64,000 nucleotides of DNA. It comes from an archaeon. Lineage in GTDB: Archaea > Nanobdellota > Nanobdellia > Woesearchaeales > UBA9642. Shown piece after piece: positions 3,585 to 56,476 of the stretch (within the stretch, counting starts at the first letter, position 1; each line of letters starts with the position of its first letter). The notes below the pieces were generated by a model that was not told the origin of the DNA, made no database searches, and was given only the letters and a program-made list of their open reading frames with translations. The stretch lies in assembly GCA_020057295.1 (NCBI GenBank), contig JAGVGF010000002.1, forward strand, positions 1 through 64,000. The letters are read 5' to 3'. Position numbers and translations under genes: made by a program.

Positions 3585-4535
3585 ATGAAACATACATGGA
3601 AGATTACAATAATGCTTGTCGCATTTTTTATATTAGCACAAGTTGTTGGATTATGGTTATTAAATCTTGAATCACAAGTTAGTATTGATACTAAAACTAA
3701 TGAGACCGTAATTAACTATAGTGATACAGCAGTTGGTCCAAGACCAGAAACTCGCGGATCAGGAAGTTTAATATATATTTTAGCTGCAGTATTTATTGGA
3801 ACATTACTTGTATTATTAATTGTTAAATATGGTAAAGTAAATATTTGGAAGACATGGTTTTTCTTAGCTGTATGGATGGCATTAAGTGTTGCAATAGGAG
3901 TATTTACTCATAAGACTGCTAATCTTGGTTACGGTTTTATTCTTGACCCTTGGGCGATGATTATCGCGTTGCCGTTTGTAATTTGGAAAATCTTCAAGCC
4001 TAACATTATTGTTCATAATGTTACTGAAGTTTTAATGTATGCAGGAATTGCATTAATTCTTGTTCCTTTATTTGGTGGAGAAGTATTATGGGTTATAATA
4101 TTATTAGTTATAATGTCATTATATGATATGTATGCTGTTTGGAAGAGTAAACATATGGTTAAGATGGCTAAATTTCAGAGTAAGAGCGAATTGTTTGCTG
4201 GATTAAAAGTTCCTTACGGTACTCCTCCTAAGAAAGTTACTGTAAGACTTAGCTCATCTAAGACAATGCGCGTTAATGAACGACCAAAAGTTGCAATTTT
4301 AGGTGGTGGAGATATTGCATTCCCGTTAATATTTATTGGAACTGTAATGTCTGGATTAATAATTGCGGGCTTATCTAAGAGTACAGCATTTTTACAATCA
4401 AGTATTATAATATTTACAACGGCAGTTGCACTATTATTGTTGTTCATATTTGCAAAGAAAGACAGATTCTATCCTGCAATGCCATTCATCACAGCAGGAT
4501 GTTTAATTGGATGGGCAATAACATTACTTTTGTAA
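3585..4535 (+). CDS. presenilin/SPP-family intramembrane aspartyl protease
   Basis: YD, LGGGD and PAMP catalytic motifs; multi-TM. Confidence 0.9.
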   Translation: MKHTWKITIMLVAFFILAQVVGLWLLNLESQVSIDTKTNETVINYSDTAVGPRPETRGSGSLIYILAAVFIGTLLVLLIVKYGKVNIWKTWFFLAVWMALSVAIGVFTHKTANLGYGFILDPWAMIIALPFVIWKIFKPNIIVHNVTEVLMYAGIALILVPLFGGEVLWVIILLVIMSLYDMYAVWKSKHMVKMAKFQSKSELFAGLKVPYGTPPKKVTVRLSSSKTMRVNERPKVAILGGGDIAFPLIFIGTVMSGLIIAGLSKSTAFLQSSIIIFTTAVALLLLFIFAKKDRFYPAMPFITAGCLIGWAITLLL

Positions 4536-4537
4536 AA

Positions 4538-5578
4538 TTATTTTTTATTCTTTAAATATTCGTATATTCCGTTAGTGTATTGTCTCCAGTAATGTACTTG
4601 GTCTTGTACTAATAAATCATAATGCATTATATGTTCTGCTATTTCTGATTTGAATGATTCTATACTTTCATTTAATTCTTTAGGATTTCTTGCATTAAGA
4701 TATAGTATCATGTCGTAATCTCCAACCATTTGGCCTGCATAGAATATGTTTCTAAGTTTCTGGAAGGGTTTTTTCATTGTTTCTAATGGTGTATCTTGTT
4801 CTAATCTTACGAGAAGATAGTATGTTACAAAATTCATTTTCTGCAAGTTTGGTATGCCGCCAAAATTTAGTATTATCTTATTTTTTATGAGGTGTGTTAT
4901 TCTGCTCTTGACTGTTTGTCTATCAATTTTTAATTTTCTGCTTATATCAATTAATGACGCTCTAGGATTATCTGCTAATAATTTTAATATCTCTATTTCT
5001 GTAATGTTCGGAGTATATTTTTCAAAATTTTTCCCTACTGGAAATCTTTTTGTTGTTAGTATGTTACTGAATGAGTGATCGTGTTTTTTTTCGAAATTTG
5101 TCTCAAGATCTAGTACAGGATTTAATTGTGTAAATTCTAAATCTGATAAATGTGTTAATATAATATATTCCTTTACTTCGTTATTGCATAGTTCAAATAA
5201 CTCTTCTCTTATTTGATTTAGATGAAATCCGTCTACTGCATCAACAATTATCTGCATATCGAATCTTCCTATGAATGAATTAATCCACATCACAAATTTG
5301 TGTGTTTTAATCTTTTGATATATTGCATCTTTATCTTTTATGTTAGAACTAAATTTTAACAATATATGATATCTTGTAAATCCTAATCTTCTTGCATCAA
5401 TAAATAGGACATACTGCTTTAGTAACTCGTTTTTCTCTAAATTTTTTAGACGATATGTTACAGAATCTTTAGAAGTGTTTAATGCCTGTCCTATCGTGGT
5501 GTGTGGGATTCTGCAGTTCTGAGCCATTATTTCAAGTAGTTTAAGGTCTTTTTTGTTCATATTGCTCTTTATGCGCAT
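4538..5578 (-). CDS. tandem (double) Lrp/AsnC transcriptional regulator
   Basis: Two HTH+RAM repeats (DLKLLEIMAQNCR...GRFD; EIEILKLLADNPR...GDYD). Confidence 0.88.
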   Translation of the reverse strand: MRIKSNMNKKDLKLLEIMAQNCRIPHTTIGQALNTSKDSVTYRLKNLEKNELLKQYVLFIDARRLGFTRYHILLKFSSNIKDKDAIYQKIKTHKFVMWINSFIGRFDMQIIVDAVDGFHLNQIREELFELCNNEVKEYIILTHLSDLEFTQLNPVLDLETNFEKKHDHSFSNILTTKRFPVGKNFEKYTPNITEIEILKLLADNPRASLIDISRKLKIDRQTVKSRITHLIKNKIILNFGGIPNLQKMNFVTYYLLVRLEQDTPLETMKKPFQKLRNIFYAGQMVGDYDMILYLNARNPKELNESIESFKSEIAEHIMHYDLLVQDQVHYWRQYTNGIYEYLKNKK

Positions 5579-5669
5579 ATTAGTATATAAATTTTCCTCA
5601 TTATTCTCAAAAATAGATAGTAAGTTTATTATAATGTAAAATCTATATAACTACTAGAAGGGGGTTAAA

Positions 5670-6332
5670 ATGAACATAACAACTAATCAAAATGGCTTGG
5701 CTTTTAAGAACGGTTATAACATCGTTGATGCTAAAGGAACTGCTATTATAGGCATGAGTCCTGGTAATAGTTATTTCAAGAGAGAAACTATTGATACACT
5801 AATAACCGAGTGTGCTAAAAAATTCTCTAAAATAATATTAATGATTCCAGATAAACCGGCTGTACATACATACAAAGCTATAGGATATTCGGATAGCGAT
5901 GCTGAGAGAAAAGCAAGATTAAAATGTAATGCATTAGTTAATAATTGTAATTATAGTCTATCTAAAATTAATAATGATGCTATAGTTATAGCTAAGTGGG
6001 ATAATTCTATAGTTAATTCTTCCGAATATAATAATCAATATAACTATTTTAATGAATTATATAATACTAATGAGGCGTTTAGAAAAGATGTTAGAGATAC
6101 AACTAAAAATGTCATTGAAAAGAAAATAAAAGATAATAACAATATCGAATCTGCTATCGATGAAGGAGTAACATATTTGTTAAGTGAGTTGCCATTCATA
6201 ACTACGTGTGCCAAAATGTACGGTCCTATAGGATATATTTATCATAATCATTGGCCCATTTATGAGAATTATATTAATGGAGTTTATGACGGTGTAGAGA
6301 AAAAAGATCTAGGATTTATATTGATGAATTAA
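5670..6332 (+). CDS. tRNA-dependent cyclodipeptide synthase (CDPS), NYH subfamily
   Basis: GMSPGNSYF (GxSxxNxYF), MIPD, YLLSELP (YxxxExP), YH; 220 aa is typical CDPS size. Confidence 0.88.
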   Translation: MNITTNQNGLAFKNGYNIVDAKGTAIIGMSPGNSYFKRETIDTLITECAKKFSKIILMIPDKPAVHTYKAIGYSDSDAERKARLKCNALVNNCNYSLSKINNDAIVIAKWDNSIVNSSEYNNQYNYFNELYNTNEAFRKDVRDTTKNVIEKKIKDNNNIESAIDEGVTYLLSELPFITTCAKMYGPIGYIYHNHWPIYENYINGVYDGVEKKDLGFILMN

Positions 6333-6402: not shown

Positions 6403-7764
6403 TTATTTCTTTTTCAAACTCAATATAATAAATATTATCAATGATATTATTACTGCTGGTATGAATGACATCTTTCCTAAGAATGGATATGATCCCCATA
6501 ATATTATTAATCCGAATAGCATAGAATAAAATGCTCCTCTCTCACTTGCTCTCTTCCATAAGAATCCTCCTATAATTGCAGGCGCAAGGACTATTAGTCC
6601 TTCATTTGCTGCCACAGCGAGCTCTACAAGGTTTGGATAAATATACGCGATGAGTATTCCTACTGCTCCTACACAAAGTGTTATTACTCTTCCAATCTTG
6701 AGATATTTCTTTTCGGATGATTTCTTATTTACGAATGTCATGTAGAAATCTTTTGTTAATATCGCACTAATTACCATTATCATAGTATTTAATGTGGATA
6801 ATATCGTGGCTATTAATCCTGCAATTGCTAACCCTAAAATTCCTGTAGGTAAGAATTCTTTTATCACGAGTAGAAATGAATAGTCTGGATTTATTCCCGG
6901 AAGAAATTTTCTTGCAACAAGTCCTACTATTAATGCAATTGCTATAAATGGAATCGTAAGTAATGCAGACCATACTATTATTTTTCTAGCTGTCTTTGCA
7001 TTATTGCTTGCATATATCCTCTGCCATATCTCCATGTATAGTAGGAATGTGGGGAAACCAAATATTATTGCAAACCAGAATAAACCTGCTCCGCCAAAAT
7101 TGTATATGTTCGTGAATCCTGTAGGAAGATCTATAAATAAATTTATTATCCCGTTTGATTTTATTAACATTAATGGAATCATAACAATTACGAGTGCTAT
7201 TATCATCACAATAAAATGTATGATGTCTGTATAGAAATCGCTTTTAACTCCAGATAGTGTTGTATATGCTAAAACTCCTCCTAGCGCGAATATTAATGAC
7301 CAAAACAATCCTTGCCCTCCAAATACTTGAAATATTTGAGACAATCCTAATAATAATCCTGCAAAAAATGTGAAGTATGAGATTATTATAGCTATACTTC
7401 CTATCACTCTTGCCCTGTTTGAATATCTTACTGCTAAAAAATCACCCATTGTGTGAGCTTTATATTTATCCCCAAATACTTTAATCTTTTTTGCAAAAAA
7501 CCATACTAGAACATATCCAATCATTATCAAAGACGCGGCCATTACGGTATATGATATTCCGCTTGAATATGTTGCTGATGATGCAGCAATAACTGTACTT
7601 AGTCCAACCATTGTTGAAAGCGTTGTAAATACTAATAATGTTGTATGAAATTTTCTACCTGCAACCAAGAATGTGTCTAATGTGGATTTTCTTCCAACCC
7701 ATATCGCTACTCCGAAACATATTGCGAGATATGTAAGTATTATTATAATATCTATCGTTTCCAT
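6403..7764 (-). CDS. sodium:solute symporter (SSS/PutP-like)
   Basis: FLVAGR, YTTLSG...TD, WQRIYAS, ATILST motifs; multi-TM. Confidence 0.9.
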   Translation of the reverse strand: METIDIIIILTYLAICFGVAIWVGRKSTLDTFLVAGRKFHTTLLVFTTLSTMVGLSTVIAASSATYSSGISYTVMAASLIMIGYVLVWFFAKKIKVFGDKYKAHTMGDFLAVRYSNRARVIGSIAIIISYFTFFAGLLLGLSQIFQVFGGQGLFWSLIFALGGVLAYTTLSGVKSDFYTDIIHFIVMIIALVIVMIPLMLIKSNGIINLFIDLPTGFTNIYNFGGAGLFWFAIIFGFPTFLLYMEIWQRIYASNNAKTARKIIVWSALLTIPFIAIALIVGLVARKFLPGINPDYSFLLVIKEFLPTGILGLAIAGLIATILSTLNTMIMVISAILTKDFYMTFVNKKSSEKKYLKIGRVITLCVGAVGILIAYIYPNLVELAVAANEGLIVLAPAIIGGFLWKRASERGAFYSMLFGLIILWGSYPFLGKMSFIPAVIISLIIFIILSLKKK

Positions 7765-8537
7765 TTTTTTCTTGTTACGTATATATTAAAGACTGTGCAG
7801 GATTTAACCCATTCATAATCTGGGGCATTATATTTCTTAAACTCTTTTGTAGGTTTACATTCTATAACATCTTGTAATTCTAAATCATTCTTTTGTAATG
7901 CATGTAAATATGTTCTTAATGGCCTTCTATAATTTTTTACTGTCATTCCAGGAAACATATTCCAATTTTTTAATTTTTCTCCCCTATCGCGTCCTAGATA
8001 AATTTTCTTTTGTGACTTCTTTATATTGATTTCTCCGACTGCAAATATTTTTAAATTGTCATCTTCATACGATTCTAGTGTTGCATATATTGGATTATAC
8101 GTTGAGTAAATAAATAACCCGTTTTTTTTAAGTACGCGATTTACTTCATGTAATAATTTGTTCAAGTCTTTAATATAATGTATGGATAGGCTTGCTGTAA
8201 CTATATCGAACGTGTTATCTTCATACGGGATTTTATTCATAGAACCAACTGTAAATTTTGCTTGTGGACATCTCTTTTTCGCAATTTTTACGAGTGTTTT
8301 ACTAATGTCTAATCCACAAACGTCAGCTTCCTTCTTTACATATTCCATAGCATGTGCTCCTGCTCCACATCCTAAATCTAATATTTTTTTACCTTTAATG
8401 TTTCCAAGAGTGTTAATCATTGCAGGCATTTCTAGAAATTCATTGTATGCCCCTTGACGTGTCCTAAAATCTCTTAATTCTTGATATTCAAGTCCGAATG
8501 TGTTATATATTTTTTTAGTATAATTTTCTATATTCAT
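7752..8537 (-). CDS. class I SAM-dependent methyltransferase
   Basis: ILDLGCGAG, GLDIS, FDIV, RVLKKNG. Confidence 0.9.
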   Translation of the reverse strand: MNIENYTKKIYNTFGLEYQELRDFRTRQGAYNEFLEMPAMINTLGNIKGKKILDLGCGAGAHAMEYVKKEADVCGLDISKTLVKIAKKRCPQAKFTVGSMNKIPYEDNTFDIVTASLSIHYIKDLNKLLHEVNRVLKKNGLFIYSTYNPIYATLESYEDDNLKIFAVGEINIKKSQKKIYLGRDRGEKLKNWNMFPGMTVKNYRRPLRTYLHALQKNDLELQDVIECKPTKEFKKYNAPDYEWVKSCTVFNIYVTRKKWKR

Positions 8538-9340
8538 TGAAAGAATCCCTTCAAATTTTTCTGTTTTAACCTTATATTGTATGCTTCTGGATTTATTGTC
8601 ATTAATTCTTTTGCTGGTAAGATTTGTGTTTTTGTGATTACTTGTTTATTTTTTTGTAATTCTTGTTTGATTTTTCTACTTATGTCTAATGGATCTGCTT
8701 TTATTGTCTTTTCGCTGAATCCATTTAATATTACTAATTCTGGAGCTACTTCCCTGATTAATTCAGTTATTTCTTCTATATCTAAGTATGAACTGTTTTT
8801 TTCTGGCTTGTTTAATGTCGTATTTATTATTAGAATATTTGCATCTTTGAACCATTCTACAAAGTTCTTATTGTATTTTGCTTTAGTAATATATCCTAGA
8901 ACAAATTTTGATGTATTTATCTTGTATGAGATTCCTACTTTATTATTTATTGCTTGAATATCAATTCCTCGTATACTTGTTTGTTTCTCTTCTTCTACTG
9001 TTACTATCTTTAGATTTTTTGCATGTTTACTTGTGAGAATACTTTCATCATGTTTAATCAGTTCTTTTGAACAGATTAAATGAATATCTTTATTTGTATG
9101 TTCTATGACTGCGTTAATATCGTTCGTGTAAATTGTGTCTGATGTGCTTGATAATATTATATTGATATTTTTTAATTCAATTTTTGCATTATCTGCTCTT
9201 ATGATTGTTCCTATGCCTGGATCAATTAGTATTTGATTATTGTCTACGTCTAGAATTATTCCTGCTGCTGTCCTATTATTGTTTAATACTTTAATATCTG
9301 ATACTGTTCCGAGCAGTGTAATCTTAGAATTAGTATTCAT
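8534..9340 (-). CDS. metallo-beta-lactamase-fold protein with degenerate metal motif
   Basis: ITLLGT, ILIDPGIGT present; HxHxDH replaced by STSDTIY. Confidence 0.6.
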   Translation of the reverse strand: MNTNSKITLLGTVSDIKVLNNNRTAAGIILDVDNNQILIDPGIGTIIRADNAKIELKNINIILSSTSDTIYTNDINAVIEHTNKDIHLICSKELIKHDESILTSKHAKNLKIVTVEEEKQTSIRGIDIQAINNKVGISYKINTSKFVLGYITKAKYNKNFVEWFKDANILIINTTLNKPEKNSSYLDIEEITELIREVAPELVILNGFSEKTIKADPLDISRKIKQELQKNKQVITKTQILPAKELMTINPEAYNIRLKQKNLKGFFQ

Positions 9341-9375: not shown

Positions 9376-9897
9376 CTAGTGTTTTGAGGCTTTTGCTAAA
9401 GAGTCTAATGCTATATCTCTTCTTTCATCCTTTAGATTTCCTTTCGATATTTCATCATGTGTGTCTCTATCGAATATGTCTTTTGATGGATTCTTATACT
9501 CGTAACCTGTCATGTGTTTGAATGTGTTTCTTCTATATCCATATCCCATGTATGGATATATTCTTTCTGCAATCCTTTCTAGCTGCTGTTCTAATTTTAA
9601 GTATGCCGTCTGTACATCATATTCTTTTAATCCTTTTAGCTTGCCTGATTTTGCAAGTTCAAGTTTTTTTACATCGTAGAAATCCATTAATGCACATGCC
9701 CTGTCTAAATCTTGTTCTACAGCATCCCTATTTATTCCTGGACTAATTCTTTCTTTCCATTCTAGATATGCGTCTCTGATTTGTAATATTCCAAACTTTG
9801 CATTGTCTAAATGTGCAGCCATTAACGCTTCCGCTAATTGTCTTGGTCTTATTTCAAATCTTTCATCTGCAGTTTTTAATGTGTCTACTAAACTCAT
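9376..9897 (-). CDS. hypothetical protein
   Basis: 173-aa ORF, no recognisable motif. Confidence 0.65.
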   Translation of the reverse strand: MSLVDTLKTADERFEIRPRQLAEALMAAHLDNAKFGILQIRDAYLEWKERISPGINRDAVEQDLDRACALMDFYDVKKLELAKSGKLKGLKEYDVQTAYLKLEQQLERIAERIYPYMGYGYRRNTFKHMTGYEYKNPSKDIFDRDTHDEISKGNLKDERRDIALDSLAKASKH

Positions 9898-9957: not shown

Positions 9958-10479
9958 CTAATTATATGTGTCTTTTATGCTCTTTAGAACTAATTCCATA
10001 GGATTAACTTTTTGTCCGACTGTTTTTTCTACTATGTCTGTTTGAGGTGTGTTTGTTGGTTCAAAATTTAATGTTTTCCTAAAATAATTTCTAATTCTTC
10101 TCTCGCTCTTTCCTAAAGTTATTATCTCAAATGATAATGCGTCTTCAGGAGTCATTCCCATCGTATGATAATCTGCAATGCCAGCGAACATATCAAAAAT
10201 TTCTAAAACATCCTTATGGACTTTAACTATTTGACCTTTATATTTTAATAACTGTAAATTTTCTTCAGGATATTCTTGACCTGAAAACTGTATTTCATGA
10301 TATCCTGCTAACATTCTTACAAGTCCGTTAGAATCTCTTTTTACAACCATCTCATCTAATTTTACTAAAATATCTTTATAATGCAAATGTGTACGCCTAA
10401 CATTACCTTCTATTTCTACAGAATACTTGTTTTCTAAAGGATTGCTCTCATCAAACATACTAACCATATTCATGAGCAA
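9958..10479 (-). CDS. hypothetical protein
   Basis: 173-aa ORF, start uncertain. Confidence 0.6.
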   Translation of the reverse strand: MLMNMVSMFDESNPLENKYSVEIEGNVRRTHLHYKDILVKLDEMVVKRDSNGLVRMLAGYHEIQFSGQEYPEENLQLLKYKGQIVKVHKDVLEIFDMFAGIADYHTMGMTPEDALSFEIITLGKSERRIRNYFRKTLNFEPTNTPQTDIVEKTVGQKVNPMELVLKSIKDTYN

Positions 10480-11853: not shown

Positions 11854-11870
11854 TTAAAAGTTCTTCTTTA

Positions 11871-12137
11871 TGTGCTAGACTGGGCAGTTAGTCCTTGCCT
11901 GTTACCATAAACGGACTTTAGATGGAGTCGAAGCCTTCGGGGCGGTATGCAATTGTTGCATGGCCCTGGACGTACTGTCGATACTCTGTCCTCATTGACT
12001 GGTATTTCGATGAAAAGGATCAGAACAGGAATGGAGCAGTCCTAAATCATTATACTGGTGCTTTGAGGGTCGCGGAGAGGAGGGAAATCCAGGACAAACC
12101 ATACAATGATTGTACTATCCACCCGAAGGCGTGCACA
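11871..12137 (+). ncRNA. signal recognition particle (7S/SRP) RNA
   Basis: GC-rich island; terminal TGTGC/GCACA pairing; Alu domain with GGCAG/TTGCC helix, UGU motif and AGTCC/GGACT loop-loop pairing; helix 8 CAGAACAGGAATGGAGCAG; TTTATAAA box about 25 bp upstream. Confidence 0.88.
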
Positions 12138-12196
12138 CTACTTAATATTCTCACTGCACGTGATATTCAAGAAATTATATGAGTGAAAAAATAATC

Positions 12197-27008: not shown

Positions 27009-27094
27009 TGCGAGGGACGTGATTCGAACACGCGCACCCACTAAGGGACTAGCACCTCAAGCTAGCGCATTTGACCAGGCTCTGCCACCCTCGC
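27009..27094 (-). tRNA. tRNA-Leu(GAG)
   Basis: Cloverleaf GCGAGGG...CTAGC TT GAG GT GCTAG, long variable arm, TTCGAAT loop; conserved position between rpoD and rpl18e. Confidence 0.95.
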
Positions 27095-32240: not shown

Positions 32241-32275
32241 AAAGCTCAATGTATTAATTTTCAATAATAAACAAG

Positions 32276-32349
32276 GGCGGCCCGCGGGATTTGAACCCGC
32301 CCGAGAAGATCCACAGTCTTCTATGCTGCCAGGCTACATCAGGGCCACC
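32276..32349 (-). tRNA. tRNA-His(GTG) with genomically encoded G-1
   Basis: G-GTGGCCC...GAAGA CT GTG GA TCTTC...GCGGG TTCAAAT CCCGC GGGCCGC C. Confidence 0.92.
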
Positions 32350-56307: not shown

Positions 56308-56372
56308 ATATTCACCCCTTACAATAATATACGGTAAAAACAGTATTTAAAGTTTATTGAAAAATAAGAAAA

Positions 56373-56446
56373 TGGGACGACTGAGATTTGAACTCAGGAC
56401 ATCTACGGCTTCAGCGTAGCGCTCTCCCAGGCTGAGCTATCGTCCC
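56373..56446 (-). tRNA. tRNA-Phe(GAA)
   Basis: GGGACGA...CTACG CT GAA GC CGTAG...CTGAG TTCAAAT CTCAG TCGTCCC A. Confidence 0.95.
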
Positions 56447-56476
56447 ATTAATGCCTGTAGTAAAAAGATTAATTGT

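Follow-up and report, generated by a model that had tools for sequence, protein, structure and literature searches.

We analysed the first 64 kb (positions 1 to 64,000, hereafter the window) of a 267,877-bp archaeal contig (GenBank assembly GCA_020057295.1, contig JAGVGF010000002.1), in which an open reading frame (ORF) at positions 5670-6332 encodes a cyclodipeptide synthase (CDPS) and stands divergently beside a gene for a tandem Lrp/AsnC-type regulator. The two genes form an accessory regulator-CDPS cassette that is rare and patchy in the order of its host. A first-pass annotation of the same DNA, made from the letters alone, had singled out the synthase; the regulator, which is its sole conserved partner, was absent from that annotation. 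The genes and predicted promoter boxes of the cassette are as follows.

5670..6332, plus strand: cyclodipeptide synthase (CDPS) of the NYH subfamily, 220 amino acids from an ATG start, assigned on profile, PDB, model and residue evidence.
4538..5560, minus strand: tandem (covalently duplicated) Lrp/AsnC-type regulator, 340 amino acids from the Met at 5560, divergently upstream of the CDPS.
5584..5592, minus strand: predicted TATA-like box TATATAAAT, ~28 nt upstream of the regulator start at 5560, conserved in two alignments of related loci (A2 and A4).
5598..5607, no strand assigned: box TCATTATTCT, flanked by the two TATA-like elements and conserved in part of the loci.
5627..5637, plus strand: predicted TATA-like box TATTATAATGT, ~41 nt upstream of the CDPS ATG.

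That ORF 5670-6332 encodes a genuine CDPS is secure from its family, fold and residues. Its product matches the Pfam CDPS family PF16715 with an E-value of 2e-27 and 96.8 bits against a cut-off of 27 (residues 17-201 of the product, profile positions 12-200 of 220), and the NCBIfam family TIGR04539 (tRNA-dependent cyclodipeptide synthase) with 120.4 bits against a cut-off of 45. Of 20 distinct sequences listed at E ≤ 1 in a search of the PDB, the best 18 are all CDPSs, including BtCDPS (6ztu, 2.5e-11), 6ez3 (3.2e-9), YvmC (1e-6), Rv2275 (4e-6) and AlbC (1.6e-4). An AlphaFold2 model built with 20 homologues as input (predicted local distance difference test score, pLDDT, 95.5; predicted template modelling score, pTM, 0.90) is a single Rossmann-fold domain superposable on solved CDPSs. 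Its top Foldseek matches are likewise all CDPSs, with template modelling (TM) scores of 0.84-0.86 to 6ez3, 0.85 to 6ztu/7azu, 0.82-0.84 to YvmC, 0.78 to Rv2275, 0.74 to AlbC (3oqv) and 0.61-0.65 to an XYP-type enzyme from a Parcubacteria bacterium. The first-pass annotation had proposed exactly this identity, to be checked against the Pfam profile and against AlbC by structure prediction, and both comparisons bear it out, as do the signature stretches that it had picked out, which are all present in the translation: GMSPGNSYF (residues 28-36), YLLSELP (169-175) and YH (191-192). CDPSs are defined by the absence of the aminoacyl-tRNA synthetase ATP-binding motifs HIGH and KMSKS, and direct reading of the 220-residue translation found neither string.

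The catalytic and signature residues of the window CDPS are S30, N33, Y169, E173, Y191 and H192. In the HMMER alignment S30, Y169, E173 and Y191 correspond to Rv2275 S88, Y229, E233 and Y253; in AlbC the catalytic residues alongside S37 are Y178, E182 and Y202. In AlbC numbering, what marks the NYH subfamily is an Asn at position 40 with Tyr-His at positions 202-203, here N33, Y191 and H192; those of the XYP subfamily have X at position 40 and Tyr-Pro at 202-203. Across 81 related sequences (all rows of the tree described below except the Streptomyces outgroup, L065), none of S30, N33, E173, Y191 and H192 varies; Y169 is present in 78 rows and replaced by F in 3.

Substrate pockets were mapped with published positions. 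In AlbC numbering, pocket P1 comprises positions 33-35-65-67-119-185-186-200 and pocket P2 positions 152-155-156-159-204-206-207, and AlbC L200 corresponds to Rv2275 N251, from which the offset between the two enzymes was taken (PMC5816076). With this offset (+51), the P1 positions of Rv2275 read VGVTMLFN, a published motif of the cYY group in Table 2 of PMC5816076 (products are written as c plus one-letter codes, cYY being cyclo(Tyr-Tyr)), so the mapping behaves correctly. P1 of the window CDPS then reads I26 G28 M58 P60 W110 F176 I177 Y189 (IGMPWFIY), where W110 follows from the alignment to BtCDPS and from the end of a model strand (105-109) directly before it, and where positions 176, 177 and 189 were counted from E173 and Y191 since the HMMER gaps fall there; these are the weakest placements in the mapping. 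The list of first-pocket residues drawn up by eye at first pass (Ile, Gly, Met, Pro, Phe, Ile and Tyr) stands, with the omission of W110. The approximate P2 is T144 N147 V148 K151 N193 W195 P196. Over the 81 rows the P1 consensus is nearly fixed as [IV]G[ML][AP]WF[LMI]Y; in P2 the residues kept are T144 (65 rows), V148 (80) and W195 (78), the other four positions being variable.

The window P1 fits the pattern x-G-x-P-W-[FL]-x-[FY] of four proline-accepting NYH enzymes (CGHPWLLY, LGFPWFMF, VGLPWFFF and LGLPWLFF; PMC5816076, Table 2), and its P2, TNVKNWP, resembles TDVHRIP, a published row with Pro accommodated in both pockets. By this pocket analogy the product may be a proline-containing or hydrophobic cyclodipeptide, a guess of low confidence that we keep this broad because similar P1 motifs yield different products. 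The label cyclo(L-tyrosyl-L-tyrosyl) synthase, which a public source gives to two relatives, was considered and rejected: the window CDPS scores 59.2 bits with the corresponding equivalog, NF052540, whose cut-off is 300, and at P1 position 8 it has Tyr189 in place of the Asn described as essential for tyrosyl recognition (PMC5816076).

The divergent neighbour shows, in each of its halves, the winged helix-turn-helix (HTH) and RAM-like domain of an Lrp/AsnC-type protein. As called, its ORF reaches 5578 (4538..5578, minus strand); because orthologues begin at the Met of MDKKDL or MNKKDL, the start is placed at 5560. Pfam finds an HTH of AsnC type (61 bits) and HTH_24 (66 bits) in two stretches each, and AsnC_trans_reg at residues 256-308 (28 bits, cut-off 25), so that an AsnC-type winged HTH is joined to a C-terminal RAM domain. 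One half aligns to PH0061 (residues 6-145) and the other to PH0140/PH1519 (residues 192-308), and in the model (pLDDT 82.5) each of two HTH-plus-α/β units superposes on PH0140, PH0061 and PH1519 at target-normalised TM scores of 0.80-0.85 and 18-22% identity. Over its full length the model matches one structure only, that of the tandem siroheme decarboxylase NirDL (4ch7), at TM 0.59 query-normalised and 0.64 target-normalised, 11% identity and a root-mean-square deviation (rmsd) of 6.6 Å. None of the NCBIfam equivalogs reaches its cut-off; LysM scores best (87.7 bits against 180), and AhbA and AhbB score 30.9 against 140 and 26.5 against 125. Among the solved Lrp/AsnC-type structures listed, the ligands named in titles are L-Ile, D-allo-Ile, L-Leu, L-Phe and Gln, all amino acids. 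Tandem Lrp/AsnC paralogues are expanded in the order, with 5 matches in the genome of the window itself (among them C2:102599-103591, C5:59962-60867, C6:125176-126054 and C5:57388-57774) and up to 13 in the same-genus genome G002; all are at most 30% identical to the CDPS-linked copy.

The regulator is co-inherited with the synthase. When the neighbours of the window CDPS were compared by tblastn with 69 related loci, the regulator was the one protein found repeatedly. In 7 loci it adjoins the CDPS in divergent orientation, at 62-73% identity (L002, L004, L005, L006, L008, L009 and L010, with L002 and L008 being one stretch of DNA); no locus with a bacterial label in this comparison contained it. 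All-versus-all clustering of 840 ORFs agreed, with the regulator as the sole recurring neighbour family of archaeal CDPS loci. Among 401 genomes of the order (an even draw that includes the host itself), 9 carry a CDPS above the cut-off, comprising NYH-type enzymes in G000, G054, G377, G295 and G296, a marginal match in G089, and XYP-like fragments at contig ends (L086, L087 and L088, in G182, G211 and G228), two of which show an IYP-type motif. All 5 NYH-type CDPSs adjoin a regulator orthologue of 60-71% identity, and of the 7 genomes with a regulator orthologue of at least 60% identity, 5 hold it beside such a CDPS. In metagenomes, 12 of 80 loci contain the regulator-CDPS pair; the two closest relatives of the window CDPS (56% identical) lie in such pairs, with regulators 74-75% identical to that of the window. 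The CDPS family was not found in the 12 other same-genus genomes or the 18 family genomes searched, and was found in 1 of 60 relatives.

The CDPS of G296 (L085:1345-2148), 29% identical to that of the window and beside a 70%-identical regulator orthologue, has Cys for the catalytic Ser, Tyr-Tyr for Tyr-His, and an insertion. Locus L004, labelled an uncultured Methanosarcinales archaeon, carries the cassette with a 73%-identical regulator, which suggests a mis-binned contig or a transfer.

Conservation extends into the DNA between the two genes. TATTATAWTG (5627-5636) is invariant in all 7 CDPS loci of alignment A2, in A4 it is retained by 10 of 11 loci, and the boxes are conserved across loci whose CDPSs are merely 29-57% identical. 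By analogy with archaeal promoters, TATATAAAT and TATTATAATGT are read as putative TATA-like elements. The ~28-nt spacing of TATATAAAT would fit a leaderless regulator transcript, TCATTATTCT is a candidate operator, and the CDPS is preceded by a Shine-Dalgarno-like GGGGG run at 5660-5664. A sigma-70 promoter and terminator scan gave bacterial-type consensus matches, which say little about an archaeal host, and no terminator. In a repeat scan, the intergenic DNA of L009 alone held a complementary pair (18 nt, 83%).

Beyond the regulator, no neighbour family recurs with the archaeal enzymes. The first-pass annotation had spoken of a candidate diketopiperazine system; as a multi-gene biosynthetic cluster this does not hold, because neither an exporter nor a tailoring enzyme, be it a cyclodipeptide oxidase, P450, 2OG oxygenase, methyltransferase or prenyltransferase, is conserved alongside the archaeal CDPSs by tblastn over the 69 loci or by clustering of the 840 ORFs, and no P450 (CypX-type) partner gene lies beside the window CDPS. 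Three neighbours were considered for a tailoring or export role and rejected, as none is conserved with the CDPS: a class-I methyltransferase (7752-8537), a metallo-β-lactamase (MBL)-fold protein (8534-9340) and a symporter (6403-7764). The methyltransferase has weak partial matches only, in 4 bacterial loci, and the same-genus genome G004 has another, 123-aa ORF in its position and keeps the MBL-fold and symporter genes without any CDPS.

The cassette lies on a native archaeal chromosome. The host genome comprises 1,201,343 bp in 6 contigs and is 100% complete and 0.46% contaminated. An archaeal signal recognition particle (SRP) RNA at 11868-12140 (135.7 bits; gathering score 96.5) stands 5.5 kb from the cassette, and GC content is 0.306-0.316 in all six contigs, with 0.287 for the two cassette genes and 0.313 for the window. 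The nearest named relatives are metagenome-assembled genomes (MAGs) of Woesearchaeota, Nanoarchaeota and Micrarchaeota, and G054 and G377 (Candidatus Woesearchaeota archaeon) belong to the same GTDB order as the host. Chorismate synthase (PF01264), the Iso_dh family (PF00180) and pyrroline-5-carboxylate (P5C) reductase (PF14748) have no match in the host genome; among control genomes they were matched in 14 of 14, 14 of 14 and 12 of 14. The small complete genome, the archaeal SRP RNA, the Woesearchaeota kin and the reduced biosynthesis markers together support a reduced-genome, DPANN-like (Woesearchaeota-type) archaeal host, as the first-pass annotation had supposed.

Two genes flank the cassette and delimit a variable slot.

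3585..4535, plus strand: presenilin-like signal-peptide peptidase, left border of the slot, conserved in the same genus.
6403..7764, minus strand: sodium:solute symporter, right border of the slot, conserved beside the peptidase in the cassette-free genomes G002 and G004.

In both of these same-genus genomes a DedA-type protein, the presenilin-like peptidase and the sodium:solute symporter follow one another in the same order as around the cassette. What lies in the slot differs: the regulator and CDPS in the window, a single 206-aa ORF without a Pfam family in G002 (L081:2603-3223), and four ORFs including an AbiEii-type toxin in G004 (L082:2733-4841). Because the flanks are syntenic and the content differs, the cassette is best seen as an accessory insertion in a variable slot of the native archaeal chromosome. 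The peptidase-symporter slot is a variable hot spot within the genus. Elsewhere in the window, two neighbouring 173-aa ORFs lie at 9376-9897 and 9958-10479 (minus strand), and tRNA genes were noted for Leu(GAG) at 27009-27094, His(GTG) at 32275-32348 and Phe(GAA) at 56372-56447 (minus strand); at its gathering threshold the Rfam tRNA model reports the His and Phe genes and not the 86-nt Leu gene.

Relatives of the enzyme were collected by a phmmer search of 1.84 billion representatives, which returned 524 proteins at E ≤ 1e-3, 51 of them at E ≤ 1e-30, and by peptide-pattern scans of genomes (MS[PV]GNSYF) and metagenomes (I[IV]GMSPGN and [HY]TYKA[LIM]GY), a sample confined to CDPSs with these strings. 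The genome scan gave 68 loci, 9 of them labelled archaeal (Woesearchaeota, Nanoarchaeota, Micrarchaeota, one 'Methanosarcinales' and one unclassified) and the remainder mostly from the candidate phyla radiation (CPR)/Patescibacteria, Melainabacteria/Obscuribacterales and Bdellovibrionota. In a quick maximum-likelihood tree of 82 rows, from which seven fragmentary rows were excluded and which is rooted on one very long Streptomyces branch, the window CDPS and three unnamed metagenome proteins make up a starred clade of four rows, inside a starred set of 33 rows (8 archaeal, 3 bacterial and 22 unnamed). A separate clade of 51 rows is mostly bacterial (SH-aLRT support 92). The domain label changes at least 4 times on the tree, which is no proof of transfer because bins may be wrong. 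The stand-alone CDPSs of L007 (Woesearchaeota) and L011 (Patescibacteria), neither with the tandem regulator, are sisters with starred support of 99, for which cross-domain exchange and mis-binning are both possible.

Proteins of 406-508 aa account for 37 of the 62 locus rows in the tree, and the five of these that were scanned with Pfam (L013, L014, L025, L036 and L056) all consist of a CDPS followed by a C-terminal SBP_bac_3 domain (PF00497), as in L014:5980-7359. One of them, the fusion in L056, sits in a MAG labelled Woesearchaeota. From these sequences, the mostly bacterial sister clade (CPR, Melainabacteria and Bdellovibrionota) would appear to consist largely of CDPS-SBP_bac_3 fusions, which may equal the NYH enzymes fused to 'ABC-transporter domains' mentioned in PMC5816076. 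The NYH clade, uncharacterised hitherto, has three architectures: stand-alone enzymes with the tandem Lrp/AsnC regulator, stand-alone enzymes without a conserved partner, and enzymes fused to a solute-binding-type domain. Because a ligand-binding module stands beside the clade in both groups, as a Lrp/AsnC gene in one and as a fused SBP_bac_3 domain in the other, CDPS output may be coupled to the sensing of a small molecule.

Taken as a whole, the locus is best explained as an active NYH-type CDPS that shares a promoter region with a dedicated regulator in an accessory DPANN cassette, a reading to which we assign a probability of roughly 0.7. The ping-pong mechanism of CDPSs is established. 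Following it, the first aminoacyl group would pass from an aminoacyl-tRNA onto Ser30 with the use of pocket P1, the second would be added via pocket P2, and the dipeptidyl-enzyme would be cyclised with Tyr169, Glu173 and Tyr191, releasing an untailored 2,5-diketopiperazine. The CDPS would be transcribed from a conserved archaeal-type promoter common to it and the divergent tandem regulator, which, we infer, makes synthesis depend on a small ligand, probably an amino acid. Together with the promoter, the two genes make up an accessory cassette inserted in the variable slot of the Woesearchaeota-type chromosome.

Several observations weigh against this reading. TATTATAWTGT has 1 match in the window with 0.83 expected by chance, so in such AT-rich DNA the weight of the box comes from cross-locus conservation alone, and the repeat scan found no inverted repeat in the intergenic region of the window. 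W110 (P1 position 5) and the P2 positions derive from pairwise HMMER alignments in weakly aligned stretches, and P1 motifs like that of the window also occur in enzymes making cFI or Leu-containing products (PMC5816076). No exporter is linked to the CDPS in the neighbour comparisons. Furthermore, in all 21 pairs compared it is the regulator that shows the higher identity (mean 68%, against 47% for the enzyme), which a simple pathway-specific repressor does not explain; its conservation covers the whole length, both RAM-like domains and the linker included. Finally, regulator orthologues in G400 and G402 (69-70% identical) face a protein of 120-130 aa that is not a CDPS, with the promoter boxes unchanged. 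The regulator can thus have other partners than CDPSs; together with its promoter it behaves as the fixed part, for which a CDPS is the usual cargo. The small partner ORFs (L097:2620-3012, plus strand, and L098:1043-1405, minus strand) belong to no Pfam family, and their product has no match in the genome of the window or in loci L001-L105.

The strength of this conservation, together with strict co-inheritance and a divergent promoter held in common, is what would be expected if the pair were a synthase and its receptor, with a diffusible cyclodipeptide rather than an amino acid bound by the RAM-like domains and controlling the cassette itself and perhaps other genes, in the manner of LuxI/LuxR. 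The lack of linked tailoring genes and exporter would suit a small, membrane-permeant product, and the sister clade, with its fusion to the ligand-binding SBP_bac_3, would give a sensor module to both groups. Yet the ligands in the titles of solved Lrp/AsnC-type structures are amino acids, a variable P2 would call for a co-diversifying receptor whereas the regulator evolves more slowly than the enzyme, and two regulator orthologues pair with a gene that is not a CDPS; we consider such a signalling pair unlikely. Equally doubtful, in our estimate, is its fuller form, a self-contained unit of signal synthase and receptor in which the regulator would sense the diketopiperazine, or its amino-acid precursor, and switch the shared promoter. 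Such a unit would serve as a quorum or host-proximity signal, and the CDPS lineage, coupled to a sensor, would have passed between the ultra-small symbionts of the two domains. The conserved, slowly evolving neighbour might instead be an enzyme on the Lrp/AsnC fold, similar to NirDL or AhbAB and modifying the cyclodipeptide or another substrate, as its best full-length structural match would have it. This is very improbable given the low identity and large rmsd of that match, AhbA and AhbB scores far below their cut-offs, halves that are closer to archaeal DNA-binding feast/famine regulatory proteins, and conserved DNA boxes that travel with the gene even where the cargo differs.

Other explanations concern the synthase. 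It might use aminoacyl-tRNA in another way, by aminoacyl transfer to a different acceptor or by a controlled deacylation that tunes charged-tRNA pools in an auxotroph, and charged tRNA would be costly to this host because it has none of the markers of Phe/Tyr/Trp, Leu and Pro synthesis. The missing export and tailoring context would agree with such a role, as would the variants within the family (those of G296 and the three rows with F at Y169). We judge it improbable, however: the window CDPS keeps all six acyl-enzyme and cyclisation residues, its fold is closest to those of bona fide cyclo(Leu-Leu) synthases, and to our knowledge there is no precedent for non-cyclodipeptide use of aminoacyl-tRNA in the CDPS family. 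Only slight credence is due, too, to a neutral or decaying passenger, acquired horizontally and without a current role, although the distribution of the CDPS (none found in the 12 other same-genus genomes searched, 9 of 401 in the order) and the toxin-antitoxin-type gene that the slot holds elsewhere would suit one; the reading frame is intact, every catalytic residue and the N-terminus are conserved, and promoter and partner gene are preserved across distant loci. Least credible of all is bacterial contamination or a mis-binned contig. The first-pass annotation had named it as what would undo its proposal, most characterised CDPSs are bacterial (PMC5816076), and the sister clade is mostly so; it is refuted by the length of the contig, the nearby archaeal SRP RNA and the uniform GC content, and excluded because the same-genus genomes G002 and G004 have the flanking genes too.

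The window CDPS thus belongs to an uncharacterised NYH clade, in a DPANN-type archaeon, and forms with the regulator a conserved two-gene cassette that is newly described here. DPANN archaea and CPR bacteria are thought to be host-attached, and almost no small molecules are known from them. Here a compact and intact regulator-CDPS pair is kept by a host without markers of aromatic, leucine and proline synthesis, which would spend two charged tRNAs on each molecule of product. The kind of enzyme being well known, interest lies in the host biology and the regulatory coupling. Should the pair prove to be a synthase and its receptor, it would offer a quorum- or host-proximity signal for episymbionts, with the sister clade reaching the same solution through its SBP_bac_3 fusion. 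A literature search that left most subscription papers outside its reach found no link of CDPSs to DPANN, Woesearchaeota, Saccharibacteria or AsnC.

Among known systems, the closest to the window CDPS are cyclo(Leu-Leu) synthases of the same NYH subfamily, from Staphylococcus haemolyticus (6EZ3), Bacillus thermoamylovorans (BtCDPS, 6ZTU/7AZU) and B. licheniformis (YvmC, 3OQH). They provide its best matches in sequence (E 2.5e-11 to 1e-6) and fold (TM 0.82-0.86) and share its S/N/Y/E/Y/H set and similar length, but are 20-23% identical to it and differ in the mapped pocket residues; compared with BtCDPS, the window protein is shorter by about two residues between Glu173 and Tyr191. YvmC-type systems have a CypX-type P450 partner, unlike the window CDPS. 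Rv2275 of Mycobacterium tuberculosis has in common with it the SPGNSYF stretch around the catalytic Ser, whereas Rv2275 and the cYY group have Asn at P1 position 8, where the window CDPS has Tyr189. In P1 pattern the likeness is to CDPSs 82, 83, 98 and 100 of Gondry et al. 2018 (cPL, cPR, cPM and cPP; PMC5816076), to which the published pocket rows were assigned by product. The hosts of these proline-accepting NYH enzymes are actinobacteria, Lysobacter and Vibrio, and that of the window is archaeal. NYH enzymes in that survey were 71.8% actinobacterial, 19.1% firmicute and 8.5% proteobacterial (PMC5816076).

Two XYP-type enzymes resemble the window CDPS in their hosts. The CDPS of Parcubacteria bacterium RAAC4_OD1_1 (7QB8), a member of the CPR, likewise comes from an ultra-small, reduced-genome organism and is the one CPR enzyme of this family characterised in the articles consulted, but belongs to the XYP subfamily, makes cHP/cHE and is a more distant match (TM 0.61-0.65, E ~1e-5). 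The metagenomic AQS34941, according to Gondry et al. 2018 the first CDPS sequence annotated as archaeal (PMC5816076), shares that annotation with the window host but is of XYP and not NYH type.

As to regulation, comparison can be made with a bacterial CDPS pathway and with archaeal transcription factors. MarR-type proteins belong to the winged-helix class. In Bacillus subtilis the MarR-like PchR (YvmB) regulates yvmC-cypX, so that CDPS genes are under regulation there (PMC4992311); the difference is one of MarR against tandem Lrp/AsnC, and of a CDPS-P450 pathway against a stand-alone CDPS. Each half of the window regulator aligns to the archaeal feast/famine regulators LysM, LrpA, PH1519/FL11, PH0140 and PH0061, but the regulator as a whole, unlike these, joins two complete units in a single chain of 340 aa.

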